Virus record (IMG/VR): IMGVR_UViG_3300030330_004701
Location: 64,001-128,000 of that record
DNA: 64,000 bases
Strand: one strand, 5' to 3'
Origin: a virus
Taxonomy: Duplodnaviria; Caudoviricetes
Shown here: in pieces, positions 34,743 through 50,056 of the stretch
How positions within the stretch are numbered: position 1 is the first letter of the stretch
Layout of the letters: every line of letters begins with the position of its first letter
Notes under the pieces: generated by a model
What the model was told of the DNA's origin: nothing
The model's input: the letters and a program-made list of their open reading frames with translations, nothing else
Database searches by the model: none
Translations under genes and position numbers: made by a program

Positions 34743-35078
34743 TTACTTATCGAGTTTGACATCTACTTTCTTTAGATTTTCAGAGAATTCTTGCAATGTG
34801 CTTATGGTTGTTTCTCTAGCTACTTTCTCTGCGGCCTCAGTAGCGTAAGCCTCGACCTCTATTGGAAGCTCATTAGAAAGAGCTTGTAAAAATGTTTCAA
34901 ACTTCATAGCTGTGTTGTCTGATATTGAGGTATTGTAATATATACCTTCTTCCAAAATGGTAAGTCTTTGCTCTAATTTAGCGTTATTATACTCAGCTCT
35001 AGCACCTATAAGAACAATAACAGTTAGAAAAACTCCCCTAAAAATATTTAACTGGTTCACCTTCATCTTCATTCTCAT
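34743..35078 (-). CDS. Hypothetical membrane-anchored protein
   Basis: N-terminal hydrophobic helix followed by a coiled-coil. Confidence 0.5.
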   Translation of the reverse strand: MRMKMKVNQLNIFRGVFLTVIVLIGARAEYNNAKLEQRLTILEEGIYYNTSISDNTAMKFETFLQALSNELPIEVEAYATEAAEKVARETTISTLQEFSENLKKVDVKLDK

Positions 35079-35748
35079 CTTCTTCTTTGTTGAGTGTCAT
35101 TAAAATTTTGGACACAATACCGCTACGCACAATATCGCTATAATCCAATTTGCAAACACCAACGCCAGATACCTCAACGAGTTTATCCATGCATGTTTTA
35201 AGACCACCTTGATGCTTGCCTAAGTCGGACTGTCTTAGGTCTCCATTTATCACAGCTTTGGAATCCTTTCCAATTCTAGTAATAAACATTTTAATTTGCT
35301 CAAACGTGGCATTCTGAGCTTCGTCTAAGATCATAAAGCAATTATGAAAGTTTCGCCCCCTCATATATTCGAGCGGGCATAATTCAATAATATCTCTACT
35401 TCTATAAGTTTCTACCGTATTCTTTGTAAGATATTGGTTCATCTCCTCTATAATAGGTATTAAGTAGGGATTAATCTTTTCTACTAATGTGCCGGGCAAG
35501 TGACCCAAACCACGACCCGACTCTACAACAGGTCGAGTAATAATAATTTTGTCTACTTTCTTTTCTATCAAGTATTCACAAGCCATTCCCACAGAAACAC
35601 TTGTTTTACCAGATCCAGCAGGCCCAGAACAAAAAGTCACATCAGACTTGTTTATGCTCTGCATGTAGGTTTCTTGGTTTCGTGTTTTAGGCCGTAATAT
35701 TTTTCTTCTTTGTCTTGTTGTCTTTGGTTTTTTTGCTTGTCTTGCCAT
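35038..35748 (-). CDS. phoH: PhoH-family ATPase
   Basis: GPAGSGKT, TRPVVE, LGHLPG, YMRGR, ILDEAQN, GDLRQSD. Confidence 0.95.
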   Translation of the reverse strand: MARQAKKPKTTRQRRKILRPKTRNQETYMQSINKSDVTFCSGPAGSGKTSVSVGMACEYLIEKKVDKIIITRPVVESGRGLGHLPGTLVEKINPYLIPIIEEMNQYLTKNTVETYRSRDIIELCPLEYMRGRNFHNCFMILDEAQNATFEQIKMFITRIGKDSKAVINGDLRQSDLGKHQGGLKTCMDKLVEVSGVGVCKLDYSDIVRSGIVSKILMTLNKEEDENEDEGEPVKYF

Positions 35749-36056
35749 TAATTATTCTCTACTGCTATAGTTTTAATTTCTGAACCCTGACACATTGGAC
35801 ACATCGACTGAGAGCCGGGTTTATGTATGCCAAGTTGGTGATGGGTCATAAGGATTGCTTGCATTATCTGCGTATCTCTAAGTCTCGCATGTATGGGTAA
35901 TTCTCTGAGATCTTTTTCCACTGGGATTTTGACCTCTATTGATGGCTCCTTATTCATTATATGCCTGAACATATAGAAAGAGCTCGCTAAATTCAGTAAA
36001 GATAGAGAAAAAAGCACGTAAACTGCGTTCTTGTAGAATTTCATTATATTAACCAA
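35748..36056 (-). CDS. Hypothetical exported/membrane protein with HH...H...CxxC
   Basis: N-terminal hydrophobic segment; THHQLGIH...CPMC. Confidence 0.5.
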   Translation of the reverse strand: MVNIMKFYKNAVYVLFSLSLLNLASSFYMFRHIMNKEPSIEVKIPVEKDLRELPIHARLRDTQIMQAILMTHHQLGIHKPGSQSMCPMCQGSEIKTIAVENN

Positions 36057-37263
36057 ACAGTTCGGTTATAACCTTGCCGGAGTTAGCGATTTTCATAGGT
36101 CTACCACTGTTGCTAGTAAACGTAGTACCCAAAGAGATACCAAGTGCTTTGCAAACAGAAGCCATGACATCCTGAGATGTATATGGTTCAGTTTCAACAC
36201 GAGTACCATCTGAGTTTGTTTCGCCAATGGCTATGCCGCCATTCATTCCAGCTCCACCAACAACAACACTCCAGCTTCGCGCCCAATGGTCACGACCAGC
36301 ATTACCGTTGATACGGGGAGTCCTACTGAACTCACCCATCCAAATAATCGCTGTGTCTTGTAATAACCCACGCTGCTCTAAGTCTTCATACAGCGCGCTC
36401 ATGCCTTGATCTAACATGGGCAGTTTCGTGTCTCTTAATGTGGGAAAAATGTTCTGATGATTGTCCCAACCACCTAAATTAACTTCAATGAATGGCACTC
36501 CTGCTTCGACTAAACGTCGTGCCATCAAGCACCCCTTCCCAAAGTTATTATTTCCGTATCTTTCTTTTATATTTTCGGGCTCGCTAGCCACTTTGAGTGC
36601 GTCCATTTGGGCACTTGTTAGAACATTAAATGTCTCTTTAAGGATCGCCTGATGTTCTTTTGCTAATGACCCTCTTCTCTGATTTATAAAATTACTCTCA
36701 ATAGCATCTAAAGCGTAAGCCCTTTGGTAGAACCTCTGATCTACTTTCATATCTAGATTTCTGATTCTGCCATCACTATTAACAACAAAAGGATTGTATT
36801 TAGCTCCTAGAAAACCTGCTCCCATACTTCCTCCTCCCACCGAGATGAACTGGGGGATTGCCAAATCATTCCGTCTTAATTGATGGGATAGGACAGATCC
36901 ATAGCTAGGATGGTCAATGCTAGGATTAGGAACGTAGCCAGTGTGCATGTAATAACGACCACGCATATGGTCAGCTTCACGAGTACTCATACTGCGGACA
37001 ATAGCGGCATTGTGCATCTGTTTAGCCATAAGTGGCATATGTTCTGTTATTTGAACATCACCGCTAGTAGCTATAGGTCGAAATGCACCGCCTGTTGGAG
37101 CACCCGGTTTAAGATCCCAAATATCCATTGTCGAAGGGCCTCCACCCATCCACAATAAGATCGCTGACTTTCCATTCTTTTTTAGTTGGTCTTCATTTGC
37201 TTTCACTGTCTCTGCTAAAGACAGGGCGCTCATCACAGATGTTAAAAATGTTCGTCTTTTCAT
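36049..37263 (-). CDS. DUF1501-family protein, Tat-exported (paralog 1)
   Basis: MKRRTFL; LWMGGGPSTMDIWDLKP; ARRLVEAGV; GWDNH; GEFSRTP.IN..AGRDHW. Confidence 0.92.
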   Translation of the reverse strand: MKRRTFLTSVMSALSLAETVKANEDQLKKNGKSAILLWMGGGPSTMDIWDLKPGAPTGGAFRPIATSGDVQITEHMPLMAKQMHNAAIVRSMSTREADHMRGRYYMHTGYVPNPSIDHPSYGSVLSHQLRRNDLAIPQFISVGGGSMGAGFLGAKYNPFVVNSDGRIRNLDMKVDQRFYQRAYALDAIESNFINQRRGSLAKEHQAILKETFNVLTSAQMDALKVASEPENIKERYGNNNFGKGCLMARRLVEAGVPFIEVNLGGWDNHQNIFPTLRDTKLPMLDQGMSALYEDLEQRGLLQDTAIIWMGEFSRTPRINGNAGRDHWARSWSVVVGGAGMNGGIAIGETNSDGTRVETEPYTSQDVMASVCKALGISLGTTFTSNSGRPMKIANSGKVITELFG

Positions 37264-38661
37264 TTATCCTACTCCTAATAAAAGCATACCGCCGCCACCA
37301 CCGCTAGAACCAAGACTGTGTTGGTCTGCACCAATATCCCAAGTTACATTTGTTGTGTATCTATCAGTGCCATCTATATCATACTGAACATTGTCACTAT
37401 TGCCCAAATCAGTCCCAGCCTGTAGTGCAACTGAATCATCACCTATATGTAAATCTTCAGAGCCAGCACTTGTAGAAATAAAATCTATGTCAGTTAAACT
37501 CTTACCTATTAAGGCGCTAGTGTCATTATAACTTTTGCCCATATCTTTTGCATTGTAAGTCGAATGAGTAGTGGTATCAGAAAGGTTTGTGGCTATATCT
37601 GCATAGTCATAAAATTGAGCTTGATATGCTCGCTCATGGTCTGAGGCTCCACTAGCATAGAGTCCCGCAACAATATTGTTTTTAACTTCATCTGCATAAC
37701 CTCCAGCAAAGTATATACCTTGGGCATGTTTACTGCTTCCTGCGGAATCTACGAAATAAATGGTATTATTGTAGATCTTTACTCCACCCTCGTCTCCGGG
37801 ATTTGCATTATGCACCATGATCGCAATCGTCGTATCGTTGCTGGTTTCATGGAATCTGTACAAAATATTGTTTTGTATTTTGAACGTCGATCCCGATGAC
37901 ATTCTGTCACAAAAGATTACACGAGGACCACTAGTTCCCGGATTACCATATTTGTCGTGCAACAGACAGTTTCTTATAATAGCATCATCTCCCGCATTAT
38001 TTCTGAACGCTATATTTGTAGCTGTAGAATTCAAAGAGTCTAAACTTATGTCTAGCCATTCCAAAGTAAAATTAGCTATTTCCGATTGAATAATCCCGTA
38101 ATTGTGTGTCGTCCCAGATGTTGGCTTTAATAGCATTCCGCTTTCAGCTGTCCCATCATGCCTGTCTGCTGAGTTTACAGTTAGAGTGACACTGTTTAAA
38201 CTTTGCTTATTATTAAAAATTACACCACTGTCTGTGAACGTAGAATCTGCATGACACTCACCAATAAGATCATCACTGGAGCCCCAATAAAGATCACTAG
38301 TGTCATCAACCATTGCTTCAAATAGAGTTATGGTAGAAAATGCCCTCTTGAAAGTCCCAGAAGCCTGCTGAAATGAAGGATCAAAAAAATTATTATACGG
38401 ACTTTGATTGCCCGAACCACTGCCTCCATCATTAAGGTATTTTAAAGTATAATTACTGCCAGAAATAGCTGTTAGCAAATATGTAGTTGTACCCATAAAG
38501 CTAGACTCATCAGTGATTACAAAAATATCACCCACCGCTGCATTTGCACTAACCGAAGAGGTAAATGTTATAACATATTCTCCACTGACAGTGGAACTAC
38601 TAGCAGGCGTAACTGTGGCTATGCTCTGATTTGATCCTATGCTTACTGTTGTTGTAGCCAT
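37264..38661 (-). CDS. Putative virion-associated beta-helix protein
   Basis: S/T/G/N-rich; IRNCLLH, IQNNIL, IYNNTI, VKNNIV beta-helix repeats; DIDG..R...WDIGADQ; C-terminal GGGGGMLLLGVG. Confidence 0.55.
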   Translation of the reverse strand: MATTTVSIGSNQSIATVTPASSSTVSGEYVITFTSSVSANAAVGDIFVITDESSFMGTTTYLLTAISGSNYTLKYLNDGGSGSGNQSPYNNFFDPSFQQASGTFKRAFSTITLFEAMVDDTSDLYWGSSDDLIGECHADSTFTDSGVIFNNKQSLNSVTLTVNSADRHDGTAESGMLLKPTSGTTHNYGIIQSEIANFTLEWLDISLDSLNSTATNIAFRNNAGDDAIIRNCLLHDKYGNPGTSGPRVIFCDRMSSGSTFKIQNNILYRFHETSNDTTIAIMVHNANPGDEGGVKIYNNTIYFVDSAGSSKHAQGIYFAGGYADEVKNNIVAGLYASGASDHERAYQAQFYDYADIATNLSDTTTHSTYNAKDMGKSYNDTSALIGKSLTDIDFISTSAGSEDLHIGDDSVALQAGTDLGNSDNVQYDIDGTDRYTTNVTWDIGADQHSLGSSGGGGGMLLLGVG

Positions 38662-39479
38662 TATATTAACCCTTCTGTAATTTTGTCATATGTTAAAATA
38701 TCTATGTGTTCTCTTTCGTCCATAGGTTTCCTGCAGTCACACACAATGTTTGCATTTCTTAAATCATCAACGGTTTCTCCAAGCTCTGTAGCCAAATCCC
38801 AGTAAGGGACAAACCATTGCCTTTTAGCTAAAACAATTGGCTTAGATTCTTCGCTATTTTCAGATTGTTCTTCTACTGCGGAAGATCTTCTCGAATAAAC
38901 GGTTCCTCCAGAAAGTTCAACCCTAGTAAAAGAGTCTCCAGTATAACTTCTGCCGGACATATTTATACATACAAAATGTCTCTTCTCTATATCAGTGAAA
39001 GACCACATACTATGGTCAGATCTAAGGTAGTCCGTTTCACTTTCTATAATGTTCCAAACCGGCAGGATAAAATCAGAAAGTGCGTTGGTTCTAAGTTTAC
39101 CGTACCAGACTTCTGAACCATCAGTTCCGAATATTTTATGATTGGCATTTCTTAATCGTCTAGATATAAACAAAGCTGCATTTATTTTTTCATCATCAGA
39201 GTTAGCAGTTTTATTTAGTATATCCTGCTGTCCCGTAATAAGGTTTGTTCTTCTTACATCGTTTGCATTAACCCTTTCAAATTTATAGGTACGTGTAGCA
39301 GCCAAAAACTTTTCTAACAGAGTATTCCTGTCTCTCATCCCAGAAGTATTGAAACCGAAATTTCTAGGATTACATATATTTTCTGCGTGAGCAAAATTTA
39401 TACTGTCTAAGCACTTAACGTCAACAACATCTCCGTCTTTGTAGGATGCGCCATCGTTAACTTTTACTATTACTTCCAT
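38661..39479 (-). CDS. Hypothetical protein
   Basis: 272 aa ORF, TAATG-coupled to the downstream gene. Confidence 0.55.
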   Translation of the reverse strand: MEVIVKVNDGASYKDGDVVDVKCLDSINFAHAENICNPRNFGFNTSGMRDRNTLLEKFLAATRTYKFERVNANDVRRTNLITGQQDILNKTANSDDEKINAALFISRRLRNANHKIFGTDGSEVWYGKLRTNALSDFILPVWNIIESETDYLRSDHSMWSFTDIEKRHFVCINMSGRSYTGDSFTRVELSGGTVYSRRSSAVEEQSENSEESKPIVLAKRQWFVPYWDLATELGETVDDLRNANIVCDCRKPMDEREHIDILTYDKITEGLI

Positions 39480-39500
39480 TATACCCTCTCTCTTTCTACA

Positions 39501-40157
39501 TTATGTTGTAATCTCTAAGTCACACGCTTCGCTTCCGCTTGAATAGTCGTATGATCTTAGGTTGAGTAATGTTGTGGCTGGATATGATACTGCAATCCAC
39601 ACTGCAAACATCATTGAGTTTCCACTTGACCAACCGGCACGGTCTACAATTTCCTGAACGATGTCTTTAATATCGGTACTTGTTATCTGACCAAATCCTG
39701 TCCCAGTCACCCAGTTAGTTATTCCAGCAGTCGTGAAATTACTCGCTGCCAAATCACTACCCGCAGTAGGGGCAGACACATTATCTTTATCAAATCCCTT
39801 TACAGAAACTGTCCTATTTGGATAGCCGTTTTTGTATGGCTTTAAGTAGGCAGATGAGATTGTTGCCCCTTGTGGAACCGTTACATTCTGGAATCTGAAA
39901 TACCCTAAAAAATGGTCTATATAGTTAGGCCAAGCATCCCAATCTTCCTGCAACCCGACATTTACATTACTTCCGCTATTGTAAAGAGTTCCCCAGCCAG
40001 ATGTAGGAGTAGACACGGAGCTAGTAGACTTCATCGAATAGCCATCATCCGCGCTAGCAGAGACTGTAAATGTTTGTGTTCCACCGCCTCCGCCGCCGCC
40101 TCCGCCTCCGCCGCCTCCGCCGCCTCTGCCCGCGCCTAATAGTAATAAATCGCCCAT
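39501..40157 (-). CDS. Putative virion-decorating beta-sandwich protein with N-terminal poly-Gly (DNRLRE/CBM96-like)
   Basis: MGDLLLLGAGR-G15; SADDG, FRFQNVTVPQGATISSAYL, DIKDIVQEIVDRAGWSSGN. Confidence 0.55.
   Translation of the reverse strand: MGDLLLLGAGRGGGGGGGGGGGGGGGTQTFTVSASADDGYSMKSTSSVSTPTSGWGTLYNSGSNVNVGLQEDWDAWPNYIDHFLGYFRFQNVTVPQGATISSAYLKPYKNGYPNRTVSVKGFDKDNVSAPTAGSDLAASNFTTAGITNWVTGTGFGQITSTDIKDIVQEIVDRAGWSSGNSMMFAVWIAVSYPATTLLNLRSYDYSSGSEACDLEITT
40080..40124 (-). repeat. GGN codon repeat encoding 15 consecutive glycines
   Basis: tcc acc gcc tcc gcc gcc gcc tcc gcc tcc gcc gcc tcc gcc gcc on the plus strand. Confidence 0.9.
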
Positions 40158-40178
40158 AATATCATCACCCTATTTTGT

Positions 40179-40565
40179 TTACCATCTAAATTGAAAAAAG
40201 AAGCCGTGAAATGGACCCGGATAGACCGGCATTGGTTGAGGCTGAATAACTACAGGAGGCTGAATAATCACAGGGGGATAATAAGAGGGGACTCTATAAT
40301 ATCTGAAATGTGGGTTCACGGGTCTATAGTAATTATAAAAACCAAAGCTATGTTTGTTCTCAACTCTTGGTTGCTGATGCTCAGGCTGAGGCTTCTGCCA
40401 CTGTTGCTTTCCGGGAATTGTAGGTCTTGCTGTAGGAGGTCTTGTAAAGTCTCTAGGTTGACTTCTAACAACTTGCGGCGGCTTGATAACTTTGCGTTCT
40501 GGCTGATCCGCATTTGCAGATAAAGGCACAAATAACAAGCATAATAGTGAGGCTAAATATTTCAT
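40179..40565 (-). CDS. Secreted Pro/Tyr-rich low-complexity protein
   Basis: Signal peptide MKYLASLLCLLFVPLSANA; YYPPVIIQPPVVIQPQP; aromatic C-terminus FFFQFRW. Confidence 0.7.
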   Translation of the reverse strand: MKYLASLLCLLFVPLSANADQPERKVIKPPQVVRSQPRDFTRPPTARPTIPGKQQWQKPQPEHQQPRVENKHSFGFYNYYRPVNPHFRYYRVPSYYPPVIIQPPVVIQPQPMPVYPGPFHGFFFQFRW

Positions 40566-41848
40566 TATATTAACTCCTTTAATGGTTCTCTGTGATCTAG
40601 AAGATATTGAGGTCTTCCAGTATTATCTAATAAGGTTGTAGACATTGTATCAATACCTAAGCCTCTATACATTGTAGCGCATATTTCTTGAATATGTACT
40701 GGTCTAGATTCAGGAATTTCGCCAAGCCTATTTGTTTCTCCTACAGTCTGTCCGTGATTAAACCCTCCTCCTGCGAGTAAAGCACAAGAAACTTGAGGCC
40801 AGTGATCACGACCACCCTTTGGATTAATCTTGGGCGTTCTACCAAACTCTCCCCACACTACAACAAGTGTGTCATCAAGCATGCCACGTTGGTCAAGGTC
40901 TCGAACAAGTGCTGATACGCACTGGTCAAGTTTTGCACCATGATCTCTAACCAAGTCGAAGTTAGAGCCATGACTATCCCAGCGCCCATAAGAAAGAGTA
41001 ACAGAACGAGCTCCAGCTTCAACAAGCCTTCGCGCCATGAGAACATGTTCATTAACAGTCGGTGCTCCATCATATTGGAATTTAAAGGGTTTACCGTCTC
41101 CATACATTTCTCTAATCTTTGGGTCTTCCTTTGACAAATCCAAAGCGTTCACCAAAGAGCTTGATGTCAAAACACCAAAGGCCTCTTCAGTAAAAGTGTC
41201 TACGTTAACAGCTTTATCTATAGTTCTATTTAGTTGTGCAAATCCCGTTAATAGGTCTTTGCGATTTTTGAATCTCTCAACTTCCATATTAAGTTTGAGA
41301 TCCTTCATCATCTCGCCATTTGGCTTAAATGGCTTGTGTGTGTCTCCTAAGTAGCCAGCTCCTCCAGCCTCTGACCAAGGGTTGTGCTGTGTAGGTTCTG
41401 CCAATCCTACCGCAACTGGTACGGCAGGATCAACAGATCCCAAAATTTTAGAAGCGCACGCTCCGATGGCAGGATAGTTGACTCCAGATACCATATCTTT
41501 CCGGCTCCATCCGGTAACACACTGGTATCCATCATGAGAGCCATCCGAACCGACAACAGAACGAACCGCAGTAAACTTATCAAACATAGACGCAATTTGC
41601 GGAAAACACTCTCCGATGTATACTCCCGCCACATTGGTCGAGATCGGTTTAAATGGGCCACGGATTTCCGATGGAGCTTCAGTCTTGATATCCCACATGT
41701 CTTGGTGCGGTGGGCCACCGCCAAGAAATATATTGATAACCGCCTTATGAGACGTTCCGCTTTCCTCTTGGGCACGCAATACTTGTGGCATAGAAAGAAG
41801 ACCGAGACCACCTACGGACAAAAAACTTCTACGTGATAAATTAAGCAT
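40565..41848 (-). CDS. DUF1501-family protein, Tat-exported (paralog 2)
   Basis: LSRRSFL; FLGGGPPHQDMWD; ARRLVEAGA; WDSH; GEFGRTP..N.KGGRDHW. Confidence 0.92.
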   Translation of the reverse strand: MLNLSRRSFLSVGGLGLLSMPQVLRAQEESGTSHKAVINIFLGGGPPHQDMWDIKTEAPSEIRGPFKPISTNVAGVYIGECFPQIASMFDKFTAVRSVVGSDGSHDGYQCVTGWSRKDMVSGVNYPAIGACASKILGSVDPAVPVAVGLAEPTQHNPWSEAGGAGYLGDTHKPFKPNGEMMKDLKLNMEVERFKNRKDLLTGFAQLNRTIDKAVNVDTFTEEAFGVLTSSSLVNALDLSKEDPKIREMYGDGKPFKFQYDGAPTVNEHVLMARRLVEAGARSVTLSYGRWDSHGSNFDLVRDHGAKLDQCVSALVRDLDQRGMLDDTLVVVWGEFGRTPKINPKGGRDHWPQVSCALLAGGGFNHGQTVGETNRLGEIPESRPVHIQEICATMYRGLGIDTMSTTLLDNTGRPQYLLDHREPLKELI

Positions 41849-41864
41849 AATACACCTCTAATTT

Positions 41865-42059
41865 TTAGCTAATGCATTTGGGGCATTTACATACCTCTAC
41901 CTTACAAATGCAACTTGTTTCTAGACACGGACACTCATCTACACAAACTTTACAAACTGCTGGTTCGTCGATATTAAGCATCTCTTTTATCTCCTCTTTG
42001 TTAATTAAGCATAACGCCGCAACTATAATAATTGCTACAAGCGGAAGTTTGATCTTCAT
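41865..42059 (-). CDS. Small membrane-anchored Cys-rich (metallothionein-like) protein
   Basis: Hydrophobic N-terminus followed by CKVCVDECPCLETSCICKVEVCKCPKC (9 Cys). Confidence 0.6.
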   Translation of the reverse strand: MKIKLPLVAIIIVAALCLINKEEIKEMLNIDEPAVCKVCVDECPCLETSCICKVEVCKCPKCIS

Positions 42060-42077
42060 AATACGATCACCCCCTCT

Positions 42078-43376
42078 CTAAATAATAAGGTCTTGTCGAA
42101 CTGTACCACCGTCCACAATTTCTATAGGACGATCTCCCGGAGCCATAAGCTCCTTATCGGAAACGATTCCGATTCTATTGTATATTGTTGCTGCCCAATC
42201 CTCTACTGTCATTGGGTTATCTTCTGGTTCGCTTGCTGTAGCGTTGGAAGTTCCATAAACCATCCCGTTTTTAATGCCTCCTCCAGCCATAACTACACTG
42301 AAAACCTTTGGCCAGTGGTCACGCCCAGCGTTGGCATTAATCTTAGGAGTTCTTCCAAATTCAGATGCTAGACACACTAAAGTTGAATCAAGCATACCTC
42401 TATCACTAAGATCTTCAATAAGAGCCGCGAGCCCTTGATCCAGTGCAGGCACCTGCCCACGAATACCATTTTCTATATTGTCGTGCATATCCCATCCACC
42501 ATAGGTGAGTGTAACAAATCGAGTTCCAGCTTCCACTAAACGGCGAGCCAAAAGCATGCGAGCGCCAGCAGTATTTCTGCCATACTTATCTCGCATTGCA
42601 TCGCTTTCTTTATTAATATCAAAAGCGTCTCTGGCCTTCTCGCTGCTAATTAAACTATAAGCACGATCATAAAAACTATCTACAGCGTCTAAAGAGTCTG
42701 ATTTTTCTTTAGTAGCGAAGTAATCGTTTACTGCGGTGAGCATTTTTCTTCTTGTTCCAAATCTACCATCGTTTACTCCGTTTGGTAGTTTCAAGTCTCG
42801 AACTTGGAAATTGTCGCTTGCCGGATCAGCGCCTAGACTAAAACCCGAGAAGGAGCTACTCAAATATCCAGTACCTGCATATTCATTAGGTTGGTCTGGG
42901 ATACACACATACGGAGGAAGGTTTTGACGGGGCCCAAACTCATGCGCAACCACTGAACCCATTGATGGGTATTGAAGGGCTGGGCTAGGTCTATAACCAG
43001 TAAACATATTATGTGTGCCTCGTTCATGAGCCGCTTCTCCATGTGTCATACTGCGAATAATCGTCATCTTATCTGTAACTTTGGATGTTTTGACCATCAT
43101 CTCATTTAATCTAGTTCCGGGAACTACGGTTTCAATGCTAGACATTGGCCCTCTGTACTCAAGAGGAGCAAAAGGTTTAGGATCAAATGTCTCTTGATGA
43201 GCCGAACCTCCCGGCAAATAGATATAAATAACAGACTTTGCTGGGCCTTCAATACTTTCATAAAACTTCTGGTCAGCCTGAGCTTGCTCCATACGGAAAT
43301 AATCCGATAGGCTTAAACCCAAACCACCCAAAAAACCAACTTGCAGAAAAGATCTGCGATTACTTTTGCAATTCAT
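42078..43376 (-). CDS. DUF1501-family protein, Tat-exported (paralog 3)
   Basis: NRRSFL; YLPGGSAHQETFDPKP; ARRLVEAG; GWDMH; SEFGRTP.IN..AGRDHW; start at ATG 43376 after a GGAA RBS. Confidence 0.92.
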   Translation of the reverse strand: MNCKSNRRSFLQVGFLGGLGLSLSDYFRMEQAQADQKFYESIEGPAKSVIYIYLPGGSAHQETFDPKPFAPLEYRGPMSSIETVVPGTRLNEMMVKTSKVTDKMTIIRSMTHGEAAHERGTHNMFTGYRPSPALQYPSMGSVVAHEFGPRQNLPPYVCIPDQPNEYAGTGYLSSSFSGFSLGADPASDNFQVRDLKLPNGVNDGRFGTRRKMLTAVNDYFATKEKSDSLDAVDSFYDRAYSLISSEKARDAFDINKESDAMRDKYGRNTAGARMLLARRLVEAGTRFVTLTYGGWDMHDNIENGIRGQVPALDQGLAALIEDLSDRGMLDSTLVCLASEFGRTPKINANAGRDHWPKVFSVVMAGGGIKNGMVYGTSNATASEPEDNPMTVEDWAATIYNRIGIVSDKELMAPGDRPIEIVDGGTVRQDLII

Positions 43377-43386
43377 AAAATTTCCT

Positions 43387-44298
43387 TTACCACATTTTGC
43401 AAGACCAGTACCGAGCTTTCCATTTTGGGCCCGGAGCTGTATCACATTTGTGTCTTGCTCTAAAACTTCTTCTTCTTTCAGGGTTATCCCTTTTAATTTC
43501 CATATTAGGATCGCCAAATCTAACAATAACAACTTTACCAGATCCATTCTTAGTATAAACTGCAAATTTCTTTGGCCCATCAGGGGTTCTAAAAGGTTTA
43601 TTTAAAGTGACTTTTCTGCCTTGATATTCTGCCGCTTTGGATTTTCTTGGATGTCCCTTTGGGAGAAGGTCATTATCCTGCGTATATCCAGAATTAGAAG
43701 GCTTACCAGTTCTAAGTAATGTCAAAAAGGCATTTACTCTAGCCATAGCCCATCCATCTCTGGACATTTTTGGTGCATGACTTGTTGAATAGGCTCCAGC
43801 TCCTCTGCGATACACAGCTTTGAGCATACCAAGAGTTGCTTTTGATCCTTTGCCTTTAGCATTATGCTCTTTGACTTTCTTAGAAAGTCTTTCGGTGGTC
43901 TTTTTACTAAAAGTGATTTTACCACTTGGGTTCTTTGCGCTATCAGGCTTGTTTCTTTTTGAACCTTTCTTCTGATCTTTCTTTGGTGCGGGAGTTCTAC
44001 GAGGATCTCTAGGGCCGGGCTTGTCAGATTGAGCTTTCTTCAACTCTTCTTGACTAGGACGACCTTCTTTTTCAGTGCGAGCAGGACGATAGTTATCCCC
44101 TTCTCTCTGCTTCTTTTTTCTAATGTTTTCCCACAATCCCGGCTTTGCTTCTGAGAAGTCGTATTCTTCAGTTTCTTCACCAAAGTCTACATATTCTGCC
44201 TCAGCTGGGATGTAAATGTTTTCTTCTGTTACCTCTTCAGTGTAACCAGTTTCATTTAAGTATTCATTGAGTGCGCTTGCGTAATTTTCTTTTCTCAT
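43387..44298 (-). CDS. Multi-module basic phage protein
   Basis: Acidic N-terminus, then PGLWENIRKK, LKAVYRRGAGAY...WAMARVNAFL, and KFAVY...RFGD...FRARHKC...ARYWSC modules resembling small phage domains. Confidence 0.6.
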   Translation of the reverse strand: MRKENYASALNEYLNETGYTEEVTEENIYIPAEAEYVDFGEETEEYDFSEAKPGLWENIRKKKQREGDNYRPARTEKEGRPSQEELKKAQSDKPGPRDPRRTPAPKKDQKKGSKRNKPDSAKNPSGKITFSKKTTERLSKKVKEHNAKGKGSKATLGMLKAVYRRGAGAYSTSHAPKMSRDGWAMARVNAFLTLLRTGKPSNSGYTQDNDLLPKGHPRKSKAAEYQGRKVTLNKPFRTPDGPKKFAVYTKNGSGKVVIVRFGDPNMEIKRDNPERRRSFRARHKCDTAPGPKWKARYWSCKMW

Positions 44299-45551
44299 TA
44301 TAGTATCACCTTTGCTTCGCCTTCCAGTAAATATCTTGGTCGTCCACCGTTATCTACACGTTGAATTCCCTTGTCTATTCCAAAATGATTAAATAATGTT
44401 GCTTGTAAATCTAATGGGCCAACTGGGTTCTCTATTGGACTGTAAGACCTGTCTGAAGCACCAATAGTTCTACCCGATTGATAGTCTCCTCCAGCCATTA
44501 CCATTGGTGTAATTGCAGGCCAGTGATCTCTACCAGCATTTGCATTTATTTTTGTTCTACCAAATTCACCAGTGACTACTAATAATACTTTATCATTCAA
44601 ACCCTTATCCCACACATCCTGTAGAAATCCGCTAATAGCTTTATCGACAGGAGCAACTCTTTTCTTTAGAGCGTCTGAAATATTACTATGCATATCCCAG
44701 CCTCCATAATGTAAAGTAATAAACTTTGTGCCATGCTCGACGAGACGACGAGCCAATAGCATTTGTTCACCAATATCGTTGGCTTTCTCTGAGCCGTATA
44801 GGGCTCTCATTTTTTCTGGCTCTTTATCTGTTGCAAATGCATTTTTTGCAGAGCCAAGAATAACATCATATGCTTGCCCCTTATAGAAGTCTACAGAGTC
44901 TGCACTTTGGCCAGCCACTCTAGCTGCATCTAATCCTCTGAGCAAGTCTTTTCTTGTTGAGAATCTGTCGAGTTCAACTCTTGGTGTGAGATTGTCTTTA
45001 TTGGACGGATCAAATGGTTTAAATGCTCCACCCAGCCAAGCGCCTTCATCACCTTCGATTTTACCTTGTTTAACATATGTTGGTACTCCGTTCTGTGGAT
45101 GATTCGCACCATAGACAGCGGAAACAATAGAACCAAAAGACGGATATTTAGCTATAGATGTTGTGGTTCTTTCTGGGTTATAATGCCCAGTCATCATGAA
45201 GTGTGTTCCTTGTCTGTGCGATGAATCTTTGTGACTAAAAGAATTTATTACGTTTAATTTAGATGTATGTTGAGCTAAGCCCGTCCAGTCTGCTCCTAGT
45301 GTAATATTAGTTTTAGAATCATGAATTGCTCCATTTACTGGTTGCCATTCAGTTGGAACTGTATCGTTGGGAGCGTGAAATGTTTCAAACTGAGTTGGGC
45401 CACCTCCAAGCCACACCCAGACAACAGCCTTATCTTCGTGCGACAGGACATCCTGAGCAAGGGCATAATCAGATAATCCTACAGCGCTGAGGCCAGCACC
45501 AATACTTCCTATTCTCAAAAAGTTCCTGCGGTCGAAAATAAAGTCTAACAT
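44298..45551 (-). CDS. DUF1501-family protein, Tat-exported (paralog 4)
   Basis: DRRNFL; WLGGGPTQFETF; ARRLVEHG; GWDMH; GEFGRT.IN..AGRDHW. Confidence 0.92.
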   Translation of the reverse strand: MLDFIFDRRNFLRIGSIGAGLSAVGLSDYALAQDVLSHEDKAVVWVWLGGGPTQFETFHAPNDTVPTEWQPVNGAIHDSKTNITLGADWTGLAQHTSKLNVINSFSHKDSSHRQGTHFMMTGHYNPERTTTSIAKYPSFGSIVSAVYGANHPQNGVPTYVKQGKIEGDEGAWLGGAFKPFDPSNKDNLTPRVELDRFSTRKDLLRGLDAARVAGQSADSVDFYKGQAYDVILGSAKNAFATDKEPEKMRALYGSEKANDIGEQMLLARRLVEHGTKFITLHYGGWDMHSNISDALKKRVAPVDKAISGFLQDVWDKGLNDKVLLVVTGEFGRTKINANAGRDHWPAITPMVMAGGDYQSGRTIGASDRSYSPIENPVGPLDLQATLFNHFGIDKGIQRVDNGGRPRYLLEGEAKVIL

Positions 45552-45561
45552 TTTGGTCTCC

Positions 45562-46584
45562 TTAATAAATTGTTGATTGTGTTTTTGTGACTATTGATGC
45601 ATTTGTATACGGCATGTAGTCATTGTTGTCATTTGTATAAGAGAAAGACATTTCTACATTGCCTCCTCCTGTATCACCACCCGAAAATCCAATAGCTGTA
45701 CAATAATTCTTTGACCCCAAATCAAAAATTATATTATCAAACTTCAGGACTATTTGTCTGTTAGGCGTTGGAAACGTGCCCATAAAATTATCATCTTTTA
45801 TTAATATATCTTGCTGCACTGACTTTCTAGCTATTGCATTAATTTCGCAAGTAACTTCAACAGGTGTTTCTATGTATTTATATTTGTTTTGTTCGGTTGG
45901 GTTTTGGCCTTGATTTGAGCCTCTCCAAAAACCCGTATCAGCAAGTTCAGAGTAACTGACTGAAAGGTTAATTGCTATTGATTGTATAACCCTAACTTTT
46001 GTACCGTCATCCTCTGTTGTTAATATGGCCGCATCAACCTCAGTTGGAAATATACTGTTTTGTGTGTCGAAGTTTTGCTTTCTCATAAGAGTTCCAGACT
46101 CTCCAAGAGCAGGAATAGAACCGGCAGACTGCTTCGTCAGGTTATTGGTAACGAGGGTAATACTTTCAGTAAATATACCATCAACAGAGAAGTCATACGA
46201 AATCTCTGTAACCAAACAATATTCAAACTTTACTGAATCGACAGAACCACTTATGGTCGTATCATCACCATAAGTCAAACCAATTTCATATTCTTTTAAT
46301 CCAGTCCAGCCAGCTATACCTAGATTGGAATTTTTTAGAAGATAAGAGTCTTGATAAGTGCTGGTTCCTGTAGTATAGAAAGGTGTATCACCAGATCTTA
46401 GATGTCGTTCGATTGTTATTGTGACTTCTGGCTTATTATATCTATCACCAAAGACCTGAGATCTTCCAGTATCAGCTATAGATTCAGCGTCAGCGCTATA
46501 GTCAACGCCAACGCTTTGGACGTTCTTTAAGTACGTGCCATCAACGAAGACCGCCTGACACGCATAAAAAACTCTGTTACCCAT
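45562..46584 (-). CDS. Putative tail tube-like structural protein
   Basis: Acidic and beta-rich; NRVFYACQAV...VQSVGV...PEVTITIERHL pattern with an apparent internal duplication. Confidence 0.45.
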   Translation of the reverse strand: MGNRVFYACQAVFVDGTYLKNVQSVGVDYSADAESIADTGRSQVFGDRYNKPEVTITIERHLRSGDTPFYTTGTSTYQDSYLLKNSNLGIAGWTGLKEYEIGLTYGDDTTISGSVDSVKFEYCLVTEISYDFSVDGIFTESITLVTNNLTKQSAGSIPALGESGTLMRKQNFDTQNSIFPTEVDAAILTTEDDGTKVRVIQSIAINLSVSYSELADTGFWRGSNQGQNPTEQNKYKYIETPVEVTCEINAIARKSVQQDILIKDDNFMGTFPTPNRQIVLKFDNIIFDLGSKNYCTAIGFSGGDTGGGNVEMSFSYTNDNNDYMPYTNASIVTKTQSTIY

Positions 46585-46598
46585 AGTAAGTACCTTTA

Positions 46599-47606
46599 TT
46601 AAAAGTCGTCAACTAAATTTCCTACAGAATACTCAGTGACTCTAGTCTCGAAAAAGTTCTTGCATTTTTCCAGATCAATGATCTCGCTCATCCAAGGAAA
46701 TGGGTTCTGTGCATTTCCATAAGGTGATGGTAAATTTAAATTGGTTAATCTTCTATCAGCAATAAACTGAACATAATCAATAAACATATCTGCGTTTAGA
46801 CCTAAGATACCATTTGGTAGAACATCTCTAGCATATGCTAACTCTAGCTCCATAGCTGTATCAATATGCTCAATGGTTTCTTTTTCCATTGCTTTTGTCC
46901 AGATCTTAGGATTGTCTTCTCTCAATCTGTTAATAAGAGTTGTACCAAAATTAATGTGGATACTCTCATCACGAAGAGTGTATTGAATCTGCTCGCCAAT
47001 TCCCGGCAACTTGTTTTGTCTGTTGAATGAGAGGAGCATAGCAAAACCAGAGAAGAAGAAAATCCCTTCACAGATAACATAATAAGTAATAATATTACGA
47101 AGGAATTCTCTCTTCCCCTCTAGCGTATTTATATTAAAGTCGGGGCGATTGATGTCAGTTGTGATGTTCATCAAGAACTCATCTTTAGCCTTGATACTCG
47201 GAATTGAATTATATGCCTGATAAACTTCATCAATATCTAAGTTCAAAGAATCACAAACATAAACCACAGTAAGGTTGTGGAGGCTTTCCTCATATGCTTG
47301 ACGCAGGATATATTGGCGACACTCTGGATCAGTAACAAACTTGAACACGCTGAGCAGTAAGTTGTTTGCAACTAAAGACTCAGACCCAGCGAAGAATCCT
47401 AGACATCTTTTGACTACTAATCTTTCATCTTCAGATAAGGATTTTGATTTCCATTGCTCAATATCTTTTGCCATAGAGACTTCTGTTGGCATCCAGTTAT
47501 TTGCTGCGCCGTCTATGAATAAGTCCCATGCCCATTTGTTTGTATGCGGCAAGATTTGATTCACAGTAGCTACTTTATCTGATATAATTTCTTTGCTTTT
47601 CTTCAT
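46599..47606 (-). CDS. nrdB: Ribonucleotide reductase beta subunit, class Ic-like (no radical Tyr)
   Basis: FFAGSESLV, EESLH, EGIFF, RDESIH, NFFETRVTEY; start at ATG 47606. Confidence 0.93.
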   Translation of the reverse strand: MKKSKEIISDKVATVNQILPHTNKWAWDLFIDGAANNWMPTEVSMAKDIEQWKSKSLSEDERLVVKRCLGFFAGSESLVANNLLLSVFKFVTDPECRQYILRQAYEESLHNLTVVYVCDSLNLDIDEVYQAYNSIPSIKAKDEFLMNITTDINRPDFNINTLEGKREFLRNIITYYVICEGIFFFSGFAMLLSFNRQNKLPGIGEQIQYTLRDESIHINFGTTLINRLREDNPKIWTKAMEKETIEHIDTAMELELAYARDVLPNGILGLNADMFIDYVQFIADRRLTNLNLPSPYGNAQNPFPWMSEIIDLEKCKNFFETRVTEYSVGNLVDDF

Positions 47607-50056
47607 TATTGACAACTCTCACATCCGGGATCTAAAATAGAACATGCCTTAATTTCTTCTGCTTCTGGCTCTTCGGTTGACTTAAAACTAACAGTTGATT
47701 TCTCAACACGAGTGGCAGCTTTGCCTCTCAAGTAGTATGTAGTTTTTAATCCGTTTTCCCAAGCACAAAAATATAAGTCATTCAAAAACTTAAGGCTATC
47801 ATGTTTGTTGTAAAGATTCAGTGACTGTCCCATATCAATCCACTTCTGTCTTTCAGCCGCAGCCTTAATTAAAATCTCTGGTTCAATATCAAAAGCCGTG
47901 ATAAACTCTCGCTGGATGTCTTCATCCAAATCAACCGCCATAACATCTCCGTCTGCAGTTTTGAGAGCATCTACTAGCTCTTGACACCAAATACCCTTCT
48001 TCTTGGCCATTGCAACAAAGTGCTCATTGACCATTGTGAATTCGCCACTAAGCGTTGAATACACATAAAGAATTGAGTAATCTGGCTCAATAGACTGTGA
48101 GCAACCTTGAATATATGAAATGGTTGCGGTAGGGGCGATTGCCATAACATTACTATTGCGCATGCCATGTTTTCTCACTAATTCCCTGACCTCATCCCAT
48201 TCTTCTACAAAGTTCTCGAAGTCCTCTTTCTTATACACATTATCTGACCTGTGAGTCTCTCTCTGGTTCATTAAATCACAATAAGTATCTATAGGAAAAT
48301 TACCTTTATCCCATTCAGAACCCTCAAAAGAGGGGTATGCGCCTTTTTCTTTAGCCAATAATGCCGATGTTTTGATCGCGTGCAAAGAAATAAATTCTTG
48401 TATTTTTCCGCACAATATAACCGCATCTTGCGAATTATATGGTATTCCTAGCTTGTGCAGCACATCATGAGTGCCCATAATGCCAAGTCCTACAGGTCTA
48501 TGCTTTAGGTTAGACTTTTTAGCCTCTTTTGTAGGATAGAAGTTTAGATTAACCACATTGTCTAAGCCTCTAACCGCCACCTCTACAGTTTTTTGTAGCT
48601 TTTTCCAGTCGATTGTACGAACTTTCAAGTGTGACGAAAGATTAATACTGGCTAGATTGCAAACTGCTGTTTCACCTACCTCAATAACTTCTCCCTCTTC
48701 GTATACTGTTGGCTTAGTGTGTAATAATATTTCTGTACATAAATTAGAAGAATGAACTACACCTTCGTGTTTATTAGAATATCTTATATTAGATGGATCT
48801 TTGAAGGTAATCCAAGGATGTCCAGTTTCGTAAAGAGCCGTCAAAACCTTCTTCCACAAATCTTTTGCATTAACAACCCTATGATTTCTAATCTCTCCAT
48901 TGTCTGCTGCTTTCTTGTACTTTCTATAAATTTTAGTAAAATCCTTGCCATAACTATCATGTAGTTCAGGACATTCCGCAGGGTCAAATAGATACCAATC
49001 TTGGTTCTTTGAGACAGCCAGCATAAAATCATCTGGAATCCAAATGGCTGTATTCATGTCGTGACAACGGCGGCGATCATCTCCTGTGTTCTTTCTAAGA
49101 TCTAGGAAGTCTTCAATATCTAAGTGCCAAGGCTCAATGTAAGAACATCCAGCACCTTTTCTCTTTCCCCCCTGATTCACAGCTACCAGCAGGTCATTAA
49201 ATATCTTTAGCCAAGGAACAAGTCCTGTAGACTTTCCATTAGTGCCTTTTATATAGCCGCCTGTAGCTCTTACACTAGACCAATCCACTCCAAGTCCTCC
49301 AGCATATTTCGACAATCTAGACTGTCCATGTAGCGTACCAAAGATACCATCAATTGAATCTCCTACTGTACTCAAGTAGCATGAGGAAAGCTGAGACCTA
49401 CGAGTTCCGCTATTAAACAAGGTCGGTGTTGACGGAGAATACCTAAACTCTGACATCATATTATATATTTCGAGAGCCTTATCTTCTTTATTGTTCCCCT
49501 CAGCAAGACATAGCCCCATAGCTACCCGCATATAAAATGCTTGAGGGGTTTCCATTCTCTGCTCATTTAGGTGGATAAAATAGCGATCATAGAGTGTCTG
49601 GATACCCAAGTACTTGAACAGCTTGTCCCTTGATGGAACCATATTCTCGGCTAGGTAGTCAAGATCATAAGAAAGGAGACTATCACTGAGCCTCTCTTCT
49701 TTTACTAGCTTTTTGATGTTTTTCACAAAAGCTTTTTTATACTGCTCTTCAAAAGTTTCACTGCCTACATCTTCGCCAAAAACTTCTTTGTAAAGATTGT
49801 TGAGTAGCATCCTCGCTGCAACATAAGCATAGTTCGGTTCTTTCTCTATCTTTGAGCGGGCTGATAATATCAGAGCCTTATTAATTTCTGACGTTGGTAT
49901 TTTATTGTATAACTGCAGACTGGCATCAAGAACTACCTCACTGACAGAAACGTCTTCTAATTCCCCACAAGCCCTTTCAACGCATTCGTTAATTTTATCT
50001 AAACAAACATCTTCTAATCTACCATTACGTTTTTTAATCTTTATATCTTGGCTCAT
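47606..50056 (-). CDS. nrdA: Ribonucleotide reductase alpha subunit with ATP cone
   Basis: IKKRNG ATP cone, PSTPTLFNSG, LSSCY, SSNLCTEI, CNLASINL, APTATIS, KTTYYLR, C-terminal CESCQ. Confidence 0.96.
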   Translation of the reverse strand: MSQDIKIKKRNGRLEDVCLDKINECVERACGELEDVSVSEVVLDASLQLYNKIPTSEINKALILSARSKIEKEPNYAYVAARMLLNNLYKEVFGEDVGSETFEEQYKKAFVKNIKKLVKEERLSDSLLSYDLDYLAENMVPSRDKLFKYLGIQTLYDRYFIHLNEQRMETPQAFYMRVAMGLCLAEGNNKEDKALEIYNMMSEFRYSPSTPTLFNSGTRRSQLSSCYLSTVGDSIDGIFGTLHGQSRLSKYAGGLGVDWSSVRATGGYIKGTNGKSTGLVPWLKIFNDLLVAVNQGGKRKGAGCSYIEPWHLDIEDFLDLRKNTGDDRRRCHDMNTAIWIPDDFMLAVSKNQDWYLFDPAECPELHDSYGKDFTKIYRKYKKAADNGEIRNHRVVNAKDLWKKVLTALYETGHPWITFKDPSNIRYSNKHEGVVHSSNLCTEILLHTKPTVYEEGEVIEVGETAVCNLASINLSSHLKVRTIDWKKLQKTVEVAVRGLDNVVNLNFYPTKEAKKSNLKHRPVGLGIMGTHDVLHKLGIPYNSQDAVILCGKIQEFISLHAIKTSALLAKEKGAYPSFEGSEWDKGNFPIDTYCDLMNQRETHRSDNVYKKEDFENFVEEWDEVRELVRKHGMRNSNVMAIAPTATISYIQGCSQSIEPDYSILYVYSTLSGEFTMVNEHFVAMAKKKGIWCQELVDALKTADGDVMAVDLDEDIQREFITAFDIEPEILIKAAAERQKWIDMGQSLNLYNKHDSLKFLNDLYFCAWENGLKTTYYLRGKAATRVEKSTVSFKSTEEPEAEEIKACSILDPGCESCQ

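Follow-up and report, generated by a model that had tools for sequence, protein, structure and literature searches.

Four separately captured DUF1501 genes in a tailed phage, predicted to encode Tat-exported proteins and lacking PSCyt2/PSD1 partner genes

The closest described systems are cellular modules of Planctomycetes, Verrucomicrobia and Lentisphaerae, in which a DUF1501 protein occurs together with PSCyt1/PSCyt2/PSD1 proteins and whose 'most complex' type comprises the four genes DUF1501, PPC, PSCyt-Big_2-PSCyt2-PSD1 and PSCyt1-WD40 (Kamneva et al. 2012, PMC3542564). Here we analyse an array of four DUF1501 genes, designated copies A to D, within a stretch of 64,000 nucleotides (hereafter the window), which corresponds to positions 64001-128000 of the 144,965-bp IMG/VR record IMGVR_UViG_3300030330_004701, the genome of a tailed phage. 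In Planctomycetes and Verrucomicrobia, few gene families are as large as DUF1501 with PSCyt/PSD1, and we know of no function and no solved structure that has been reported for a DUF1501 protein in more than ten years. Like the proteins of the cellular modules, the phage proteins belong to the family PF07394 and possess a twin-arginine signal. Copy C is an orthologue of the DUF1501 protein of the four-gene type, and copies A and B are orthologues of those of the two-gene type. In contrast to the cellular modules, the phage array is stripped of all partners, and it brings together four DUF1501 lineages with small, phage-specific proteins that are predicted to be exported.

Among the classical phage auxiliary genes, those of cyanophages, such as psbA (encoding D1), pstS and phoA, provide an enzyme or a single subunit of the host type. 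A-D share with them the origin from a host, purifying selection, a composition drifted towards that of the phage, a position among early or middle genes of replication and nucleotide metabolism (nrdAB, phoH), the presumed role of sustaining a process of the host during infection and the supply of one subunit of a multi-protein host system. They differ from them in that the DUF1501 family is uncharacterised, that the products are predicted to reach the periplasm by way of Tat, and that one phage combines four paralogues which were captured separately. The features by which phage auxiliary metabolic genes are usually recognised are all found at this locus, namely viral hallmark genes, viral flanks on both sides, host orthologues, ratios of nonsynonymous to synonymous substitution rates (dN/dS) of 0.03-0.06 and conservation in about 25 related contigs. 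We therefore classify A-D as undescribed phage auxiliary genes that supply a host-type subunit, and we consider them a new kind of such genes because each of them was copied separately and without the large haem-motif partner. An earlier note on the window, made from its letters only, had suggested that DUF1501 proteins have not been described in phages; a full-text literature search indeed returned no report of a phage-borne DUF1501 protein, and the paper of 2012 on the cellular modules (PMC3542564) was all that it brought up. Our preferred reading, which we consider probable though far from assured, is that A-D are host-derived auxiliary enzymes exported via the twin-arginine translocation (Tat) system, that A, B and C dock onto PSCyt2/PSD1 proteins of the host in order to sustain periplasmic modules, and that D is virus-specific.

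The earlier note had described four full-length DUF1501 paralogs with intact twin-arginine signals, and this description is borne out. The proteins cover the Pfam profile PF07394 from position 1-2 to position 386-390 of 390 (E 6.5e-114 to 2.8e-66; individual scores are given in Table 1, the gathering score of the family being 27 bits), and a genome-wide profile search found exactly four DUF1501 genes, namely A-D. The motifs GGP/S, ARRLVExG, WDxH, EF(G/S)RT and GRDHW, which the note had quoted, occur in A-D as well. The positions by which it had listed the genes are the stop-codon ends, since the genes lie on the minus strand. For copy C, the longest open reading frame (42078-43580) overlaps the upstream gene, and the real start (MNCKSNRRSFL) is at position 43379. 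Neither PHROGs (v4) nor NCBIfam contains a family for any of A-D.

The twin-arginine motifs of A-D are followed by a hydrophobic stretch and, as read from the sequence, by an A-x-A-like end (VKA, LRA, AQA or LAQ). The pattern RRxF[LIVM] is present in 158 of 169 distinct phage DUF1501 copies. These motifs point to an export of A-D by the Tat system, the tatC gene of which is present in the candidate host genome G001 and not in the phage.

A-D were captured separately from at least four host DUF1501 lineages. Trees were calculated with FastTree from 148 sequences (102 paralogues from a single host genome, 30 copies from phages and 16 further sequences of cellular origin) and with IQ-TREE from 50 sequences. 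With both programs, phage A groups with the host A orthologue (support 100) and phage B is the sister of the host B orthologue (support 99-100). Phage C groups with the host C orthologue (100) inside the Pirellulaceae (95-96), and phage D forms a clade of its own (100), the long stem of which arises in a small cellular group of mixed composition (99). The well-supported branches force at least four origins of the phage copies. A single phage clade is rejected by the approximately unbiased (AU) test (difference in log-likelihood 906, p 8.8e-6), and with it a duplication of the genes inside the phage. The trees do not settle how host and phage copies branch inside clades A and C, and the host C orthologue nests among the phage C copies in the FastTree tree. 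Together with the pairwise identity of only 29-35% among A-D, these results agree with the proposal of the earlier note that the copies are old and divergent, stem from distinct host subfamilies by independent captures and are not the outcome of a recent duplication.

The copies are also kept under purifying selection. The pairwise dN/dS values among phage orthologues are 0.030 for A, 0.035 for B, 0.039 for C and 0.056 for D, next to 0.019 for PhoH, so that the paralogs do not evolve neutrally. Moreover, their synonymous sites have fully drifted to the composition of the phage. The GC content at third codon positions (GC3) is 0.28-0.36 in A-D and 0.33-0.36 in nrdA, nrdB and phoH, in comparison to 0.44-0.51 in the cellular orthologues, and the nucleotide identity to the host orthologues amounts to only 72% at a protein identity of 80-86%.

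The bearer of the array is a real phage and neither host DNA nor a chimera. The record has a completeness of 94% (CheckV), and genes for TerL, the portal protein and the major head protein (MCP) are found elsewhere in the 144,965-bp genome. Its further content includes two giant tail-region proteins, a split DnaE, DnaB, a RecA-like protein, a class I ribonucleotide reductase (RNR) and PhoH. The minus strand carries all long genes of the window, the GC content of which is about 0.38-0.40. One could object that the array is an artefact, that is, part of a chimeric assembly, a host contamination or a set of decaying passenger genes, since its region has a GC content of 0.41-0.44, slightly above the 0.40 of the genome, and the encoded proteins closely resemble those of cells. 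This is extremely unlikely. About 25 independent viral contigs of marine origin in IMG/VR show the D-C-(B)-A array between the same flanking genes, which argues against a chimera, the GC3 is that of the phage, no partner or other cellular genes are found, the genes are tightly packed in one direction and purifying selection is strong. The independent assemblies, the phage-like GC3 and the nucleotide identity of 72% exclude a very recent transfer as well.

A scan of IMG/VR with copy C yielded 30 loci, and 28 related contigs were compared. The gene order nrdA-nrdB-(p340)-D-p303-C-p64-(B)-(p128)-A-p102-phoH is found in about 25 of the 30 loci, which come from many marine metagenomes and whose orthologues are 73-98% identical. 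Copy B is absent in several relatives and is the copy most often missing. A second scan, for which motifs from a diverse alignment were used, matched at least 597 stretches in IMG/VR, at least 561 of which encode DUF1501 proteins. Among 61 further loci that were examined (one to four DUF1501 copies each, GC content 0.30-0.46), 54 adjoin homologues of the DnaB, DnaE, RNR, PhoH or TerL genes of this phage, and 59 are without a partner gene, the exceptions being L274 and L275. Over 91 loci, a sample that was seeded with copy C and is hence biased toward it, the commonest layouts are C-A, D-C-A, D-C and D-C-B-A, the last of these in 14 loci. When 50,697 phage records of GenBank were searched with tblastn, no full-length homologue came up and no more than two matches, both weak and partial (24-30% coverage); therefore, no sequenced cultured phage shows the genes of the array.

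Two overlapping contigs, L034 and L035 (IMG/VR 3300021964_010058 and 3300025890_003315; 97.7% nucleotide identity in the overlap), represent a separate low-GC lineage, which is phage-like as judged from its neighbouring genes only (a ferredoxin of phrog_3704, an HNH endonuclease and a deoxyribonucleotidase). Here (L034:345-11269, L035:9905-14145), the genes encode in succession a DUF1501 protein (479 aa), a PSCyt1/PSCyt2/PSD1 protein (934 aa), a protein of 204 aa, a PSCyt/PSD1 protein (874 aa) and two further DUF1501 proteins (449 and 434 aa). As in the window, several DUF1501 genes are phage-borne, and one of the three is 54% identical to copy C. In contrast to the window, where only the enzyme subunits are present, this lineage possesses two partner genes. 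Therefore, entire modules of enzyme and partner can also travel on phages. The earlier note has to be corrected in so far as the array is not peculiar to this one phage, since DUF1501 genes are found in so many IMG/VR stretches. In addition, this one other lineage does carry the partner genes.

The host is likely a member of the marine Pirellulaceae, and the planctomycete host that had been supposed in the earlier note agrees with the orthologues of A, B and C in this family. Copy C is 85-86% identical to a protein encoded on a 4.8-Mb contig and in several metagenome-assembled genomes (MAGs) labelled Pirellulaceae or Rhodopirellula; like A and B, it corresponds to single genes in five marine Pirellulaceae genomes. 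The gene of this orthologue heads a cluster for DUF1501, a PPC-domain protein, PSCyt2-PSD1 and PSCyt1-WD40, and adjoins genes for TonB-ExbBD and a TonB-dependent receptor. Copy A has one orthologue per genome in five marine Pirellulaceae genomes (78-81% identical, the next best protein 40%), with PSCyt2/PSD1 genes on both sides of the orthologue. For copy B, there is likewise one gene per genome in five marine Pirellulaceae genomes (57-59% identical, next best 53%), followed by a PSCyt1/PSCyt2/PSD1 gene, and the nearest protein found by an exhaustive search of 1.84 billion cluster representatives is 61% identical. For copy D, the five candidate host genomes offer no match above 35-37% identity, and homologues with 59-91% identity are found only on contigs of at most 154 kb, which is the size of a phage. 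G001, the Pirellulaceae MAG LRMED-195, possesses 127 DUF1501 genes in about 4.8 Mb. The nearest cellular relatives of D, on the loci L097 and L104, sit among housekeeping genes, for instance those for adenylosuccinate synthetase or anthranilate synthase.

The partner proteins, which as a family have an invariant C-x-x-C-H-x-H motif, are not encoded by the phage. No match to PF07583 or PF07587 (PSCyt2/PSD1) at E<=1 was obtained in the whole 145-kb genome, and no PSCyt2/PSD1 gene was found in the related records G006-G008 or in the loci L006-L033, so that the absence of a DUF1549/DUF1553 partner, noted before for the window, extends to the rest of the genome and to these related contigs. We modelled a complex of phage A (residues 24-404) and the 582-aa PSCyt2/PSD1 protein encoded beside the host A orthologue. 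The interface score ipSAE of this pair was 0.78 (0.77-0.78 in three runs), in comparison to 0.01 for the best of three controls; this mark is reached by 58 of 80 solved complexes and by 2 of 110 mismatched pairs, rough counts because our own alignments were supplied. The runs share at least 67% of the contacts, and the predicted local distance difference test (pLDDT) score of the partner is at least 87. Phage A is thus predicted to dock with residues 137-215, which belong to the helical insert of DUF1501, onto residues 409-582 of the host partner, its PSD1 domain. The recall of a known structure by the prediction program is unlikely, because no related complex is found in the PDB by sequence.

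The earlier note had named several possible purposes, namely that the phage proteins hijack or titrate the partner proteins of the host, remodel the envelope, exclude superinfecting phages or scavenge nutrients; the docking model bears on a single link among these, the binding of phage A to the PSD1 domain. The exported subunits might compete with the DUF1501 proteins of the host for PSCyt2/PSD1 and thereby shut down or re-route the modules, with a change of the envelope or cell surface, a block of uptake or the exclusion of other phages as a consequence. Such an interference would explain why subunits are present without partners, and it would fit to the predicted position of phage A on the PSD1 domain, to the stronger divergence of just this interface from the host orthologue (69% in comparison to about 83% identity) and to the interleaved genes p64, p128 and p102, which are phage-specific, encode predicted exported proteins and have no detected counterpart in the host. 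However, a pure decoy does not need an active site, and the putative catalytic and metal-binding residues that are invariant in the family are kept in 169 of 169 phage copies, an observation that speaks against inert decoys. The dN/dS of 0.03-0.06 over the whole length is a further point against interference, and the lineage of L034 and L035, which carries the partners too, fits better to the supply of a function. We therefore favour supply over blockade, because the active sites are intact and one lineage carries whole modules, and rate interference as unlikely; that we do not rate it lower is due to the greater divergence at the interface and to the small proteins that only the phages have.

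The AlphaFold2 model of copy C (pLDDT 85) has the fold of the alkaline phosphatase superfamily. In VIA-align, the full range of Z-scores is 15-20.4, with ENPP6, ENPP7, ENPP4 and the Xac nucleotide pyrophosphatase/phosphodiesterase (NPP) at 19.9-20.4, PafA at 19.5, sulfatases at 17-18.8 and LtaS, EptA and phosphopentomutase lower. Foldseek agrees with this assignment (E ~1e-7). About 245-275 residues are aligned in these structural matches, at a sequence identity of 9-16%, and sequence and profile searches of the PDB found no significant relative of DUF1501. In a profile alignment, the EFGR motif of DUF1501 falls on the metal-binding GDHG motif of LtaS and the sulfatases. The residues H118, W296, D297, H299, E340, F341, R343, R353 and H355 (numbering of copy C) are invariant in 33 diverse members and in all 169 phage copies; H118 is the first residue of the helix after the strand formed by residues 106-112. 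Motifs of the types D-x-H and D-H occur as well. In the D-type copies, D66 and K68 are replaced by histidine and proline (D66H and K68P, again in the numbering of copy C), and this exchange is fixed in 42 phage copies. DUF1501 therefore resembles the NPP/ENPP proteins, PafA, the type I sulfatases and LtaS/EptA in its core fold and in conserved Asp, His and Glu residues that align with metal-binding motifs. It differs from them in the low sequence identity, in the lack of a C/S-x-P-x-R motif, in the invariant H118 and in a helical insert of its own, which is the predicted partner interface. A sulfatase of the formylglycine type was considered and rejected, as the pattern [CS].P.R matches none of A-D and D has no cysteine at all. 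As far as the model and the conserved positions allow a statement, A-D look like working Tat-exported metalloenzymes and, because the putative catalytic residues are intact in the 169 phage copies, not like inert decoys.

If they are enzymes, it is conceivable that A-D do not need any partner and act as periplasmic phosphodiesterases or phosphatases (or other esterases) that free phosphate or another nutrient for phage DNA synthesis, as phage phoA does. The NPP-type phosphodiesterases and PafA are the top structural matches, copy D shows a weak match to the Pfam family Phosphodiest (E 0.004), the array forms a tight block between nrdAB and phoH, and the nearest cellular relatives of D have no adjacent partners. 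On the other hand, a partner gene lies next to every one of the host orthologues of A, B and C, and this pairing is a hallmark of the family (PMC3542564). The score of the docking model lies far above the controls, and sulfatases score nearly as high as phosphodiesterases, so that phosphate chemistry is not established. We consider a scavenging by stand-alone enzymes improbable.

Returning to docking onto host partners as the preferred reading, the following course of events might be envisaged. The 145-kb tailed phage, presumably of the lytic type, would infect a marine member of the Pirellulaceae and direct the synthesis of A-D during infection, and these proteins, already folded, would be exported to the periplasm by the Tat system of the host. 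From at least four DUF1501 lineages, the phage would have taken only the enzyme subunit and left the PSCyt2/PSD1 partners with their CxxCH motif behind. A, B and C would then dock onto the host's own partners via the helical insert and thereby keep particular modules for substrate processing in the periplasm running, or strengthen them, during phage replication, which is the same logic as with psbA or phoA of cyanophages. The hydrolysis of phospho- or sulfo-esters for nutrient supply appears to be the most likely chemistry. Copy D would be a virus-specific derivative, which may work alone. Export, docking, enzymatic chemistry and the benefit to the phage are all inferred, the docking from modelling.

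Several observations weigh against this reading. The docking is one structure prediction for one copy. At its interface, phage A agrees with the host orthologue in 27 of 39 positions (69%), a smaller share than in the remainder of the protein (81-84%; Fisher p 0.048), and this lower conservation is compatible with a productive docking as well as with a competing or diverging subunit. Copy D has no host orthologue, and its nearest cellular relatives, which come from two genomes (L097:9800-11245 and L104:8404-11326), have no PSCyt2/PSD1 gene within 10 kb. The assignment of the host is based on gene similarity only. Phosphodiesterases and sulfatases are nearly the same distance from the fold (Z 20 and 18.8), and we know of no characterised member of DUF1501 or PSCyt/PSD1, which makes the chemistry and the benefit to the phage guesses.

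A more far-reaching idea, which we put forward only tentatively and regard as rather doubtful at present, is that DUF1501 is the catalytic and rate-limiting subunit of a large class of periplasmic two-protein enzymes, in which it would be paired with PSCyt/PSD1 proteins bearing the CxxCH haem motif and which would amount to more than 100 gene pairs per planctomycete genome. A widespread group of marine and freshwater phages would then have repeatedly captured only DUF1501 and plugged it into the partners of their hosts, so that selected modules go on working in infected cells, as a counterpart in the periplasm to psbA of cyanophages, and a D-type lineage would have evolved that is restricted to viruses. 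If this is true, the phage copies mark the few of about 127 modules that matter most to the physiology of the host and offer a small and tractable entry to their chemistry.

Apart from this idea, the separate capture and the strong selection without partners single out a handful of modules as important during infection. The short, partner-free phage genes are well suited to expression and assay, and the predicted binding of the DUF1501 helical insert to the PSD1 domain is a structural hypothesis that can be tested. For phage ecology, a widespread class of predicted exported auxiliary genes is added, with at least 561 stretches in IMG/VR. We know of almost no phages of bacteria of the Planctomycetes-Verrucomicrobia-Chlamydiae (PVC) group, and DUF1501 might serve as a host marker for large uncultured phages of this group.

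The position of the array between phoH and nrdB, as given in the earlier note, is correct (Table 1). From nrdA to phoH, all genes are co-directional and all intergenic gaps measure 21 nt or less; because of these gaps, which are the sole basis for it, we assume an operon structure. A scan of 34.5-50.5 kb for promoters and terminators gave no excess over shuffled sequences (43 promoter-like sites in comparison to 39, and 13 terminator-like sites in comparison to 10).

Table 1. Genes of the array and of its flanks (positions in the window)
Feature	Position	Strand	Details
DUF1501 copy A	36049..37263	-	404 aa; Tat signal KRRTFL; Pfam PF07394 E 2e-102, 343.7 bits
DUF1501 copy B	40565..41848	-	427 aa; Tat signal SRRSFL; Pfam PF07394 E 6e-83, 279.6 bits
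DUF1501 copy C	42078..43379	-	433 aa; Tat signal NRRSFL; Pfam PF07394 E 6.5e-114, 381.6 bits
DUF1501 copy D	44298..45551	-	417 aa; Tat signal DRRNFL; Pfam PF07394 E 2.8e-66, 224.7 bits
p303, conserved non-exported protein between D and C	43387..44298	-	Lys/Arg-rich middle; C-terminal domain matches phrog_7595, DUF5824, DUF5754
p64, predicted membrane-anchored peptide (or lipoprotein) with about 11 conserved Cys	41865..42059	-	sequence and 15 orthologues
p128, protein with predicted Sec signal, rich in Pro and Gln	40179..40565	-	sequence and 12 orthologues; conserved aromatic C-terminus ...PFHGFFFQFRW
p102, small protein with predicted N-terminal membrane anchor	35748..36044	-	13 orthologues; conserved THHQLGIH...CPMC; dN/dS 0.17
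Insert of p465, p272 and p218	37264..40157	-	variable; p465 predicted right-handed beta-helix, p218 with poly-Gly N-terminus
p340, tail-tube-like, between nrdB and D	45562..46584	-	Atlas feature search 0.97 to Phage_tube_2 clusters (lead only)
RNR small and large subunits (nrdB, nrdA), upstream flank	46599..50056	-	Pfam, PHROGs
PhoH-like ATPase, downstream flank	35038..35748	-	phrog_170, E 4.8e-76

The neighbouring genes were also taken into account. The earlier note had reported small exported peptides and virion-like genes between the DUF1501 genes. The former are well represented by p64, p128 and p102, but virion-like genes do not hold as a conserved part of the array, since hardly any of the 28 related contigs shows a trace of the block of p465, p272 and p218 and the assignments of p340 and p465 are leads only. 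None of the 28 contigs possesses p465 or p272, and a weak p218-like match (about 35% identical) is found in only two of them. For p465, the similarity to beta-helix proteins consists in viral Atlas clusters matched by predicted structure at TM scores of 0.53-0.89. The gene p340 is highly variable (34-94% identity between relatives) and lies far from the structural module, which occupies genome positions 18-62 kb.

The protein p303 is present in 17 related contigs, with about 80% identity in the C-terminal 85 amino acids and a dN/dS of 0.053. The cysteines of p64 follow the pattern C-x2-C-x3-C-P-C...C-I-C...C-K-C-x2-C; its gene is always located directly downstream of C, and the orthologue in L019 has an LGC lipobox. 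One might speculate that the His/Cys motifs of p64 and p102 serve metal handling and that these proteins are perhaps helpers of the exported enzymes. The strictly conserved C-terminus of p128, PFHGFFFQFR(W/F), resembles the C-terminal signal of outer membrane proteins, and in some relatives p128 is located upstream of nrdA, outside the array. Neither PHROGs nor NCBIfam contains a family for p64, p102 or p128. In single-query searches, which do not prove absence, five candidate host genomes yielded neither p102 nor p128, and the eight non-DUF1501 proteins of the region likewise had no match in 1.7 Mb of cellular loci when used as single queries.

The window also contains numerous glycosyltransferase genes. 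A protein of 812 aa with two radical-SAM/SPASM units is encoded at positions 55664-58102 and adjoins a glycosyltransferase of family GT4, and many more glycosyltransferase genes are found at 16-19 kb and 54-55 kb. One could imagine that the DUF1501 enzymes add phospho or sulfo groups to surface glycans built by these genes, or remove them, particularly as the periplasmic transferases LtaS and EptA of the alkaline phosphatase superfamily are among the fold matches. However, the array is about 17 kb away from the glycan cluster and next to genes of nucleotide metabolism, in relatives it is found beside DnaB/DnaE or RNR/PhoH genes, and the host genes to which A, B and C are nearly orthologous belong to PSCyt/PSD1 modules and not to glycan loci. 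A modification of the envelope or of glycans that is tied to these glycan genes is therefore very unlikely.

Two minor observations concern sequence repeats. The end of p465 (...GGGGGGMLLLGVG) and the start of p218 (MGDLLLLGAGRGGGGGGGGGGGGGGG) have a common 'LLLG-G + poly-Gly' motif although they are two genes apart, and this motif may be the boundary of a recombination event or a cassette. Furthermore, bases 1-9 of the record are identical to bases 144957-144965 (TCAGTTAAG), although IMG/VR calls the record linear, and 10 N are present inside it; the nine identical bases may represent a terminal overlap, after trimming, of an assembly that is circular or circularly permuted.

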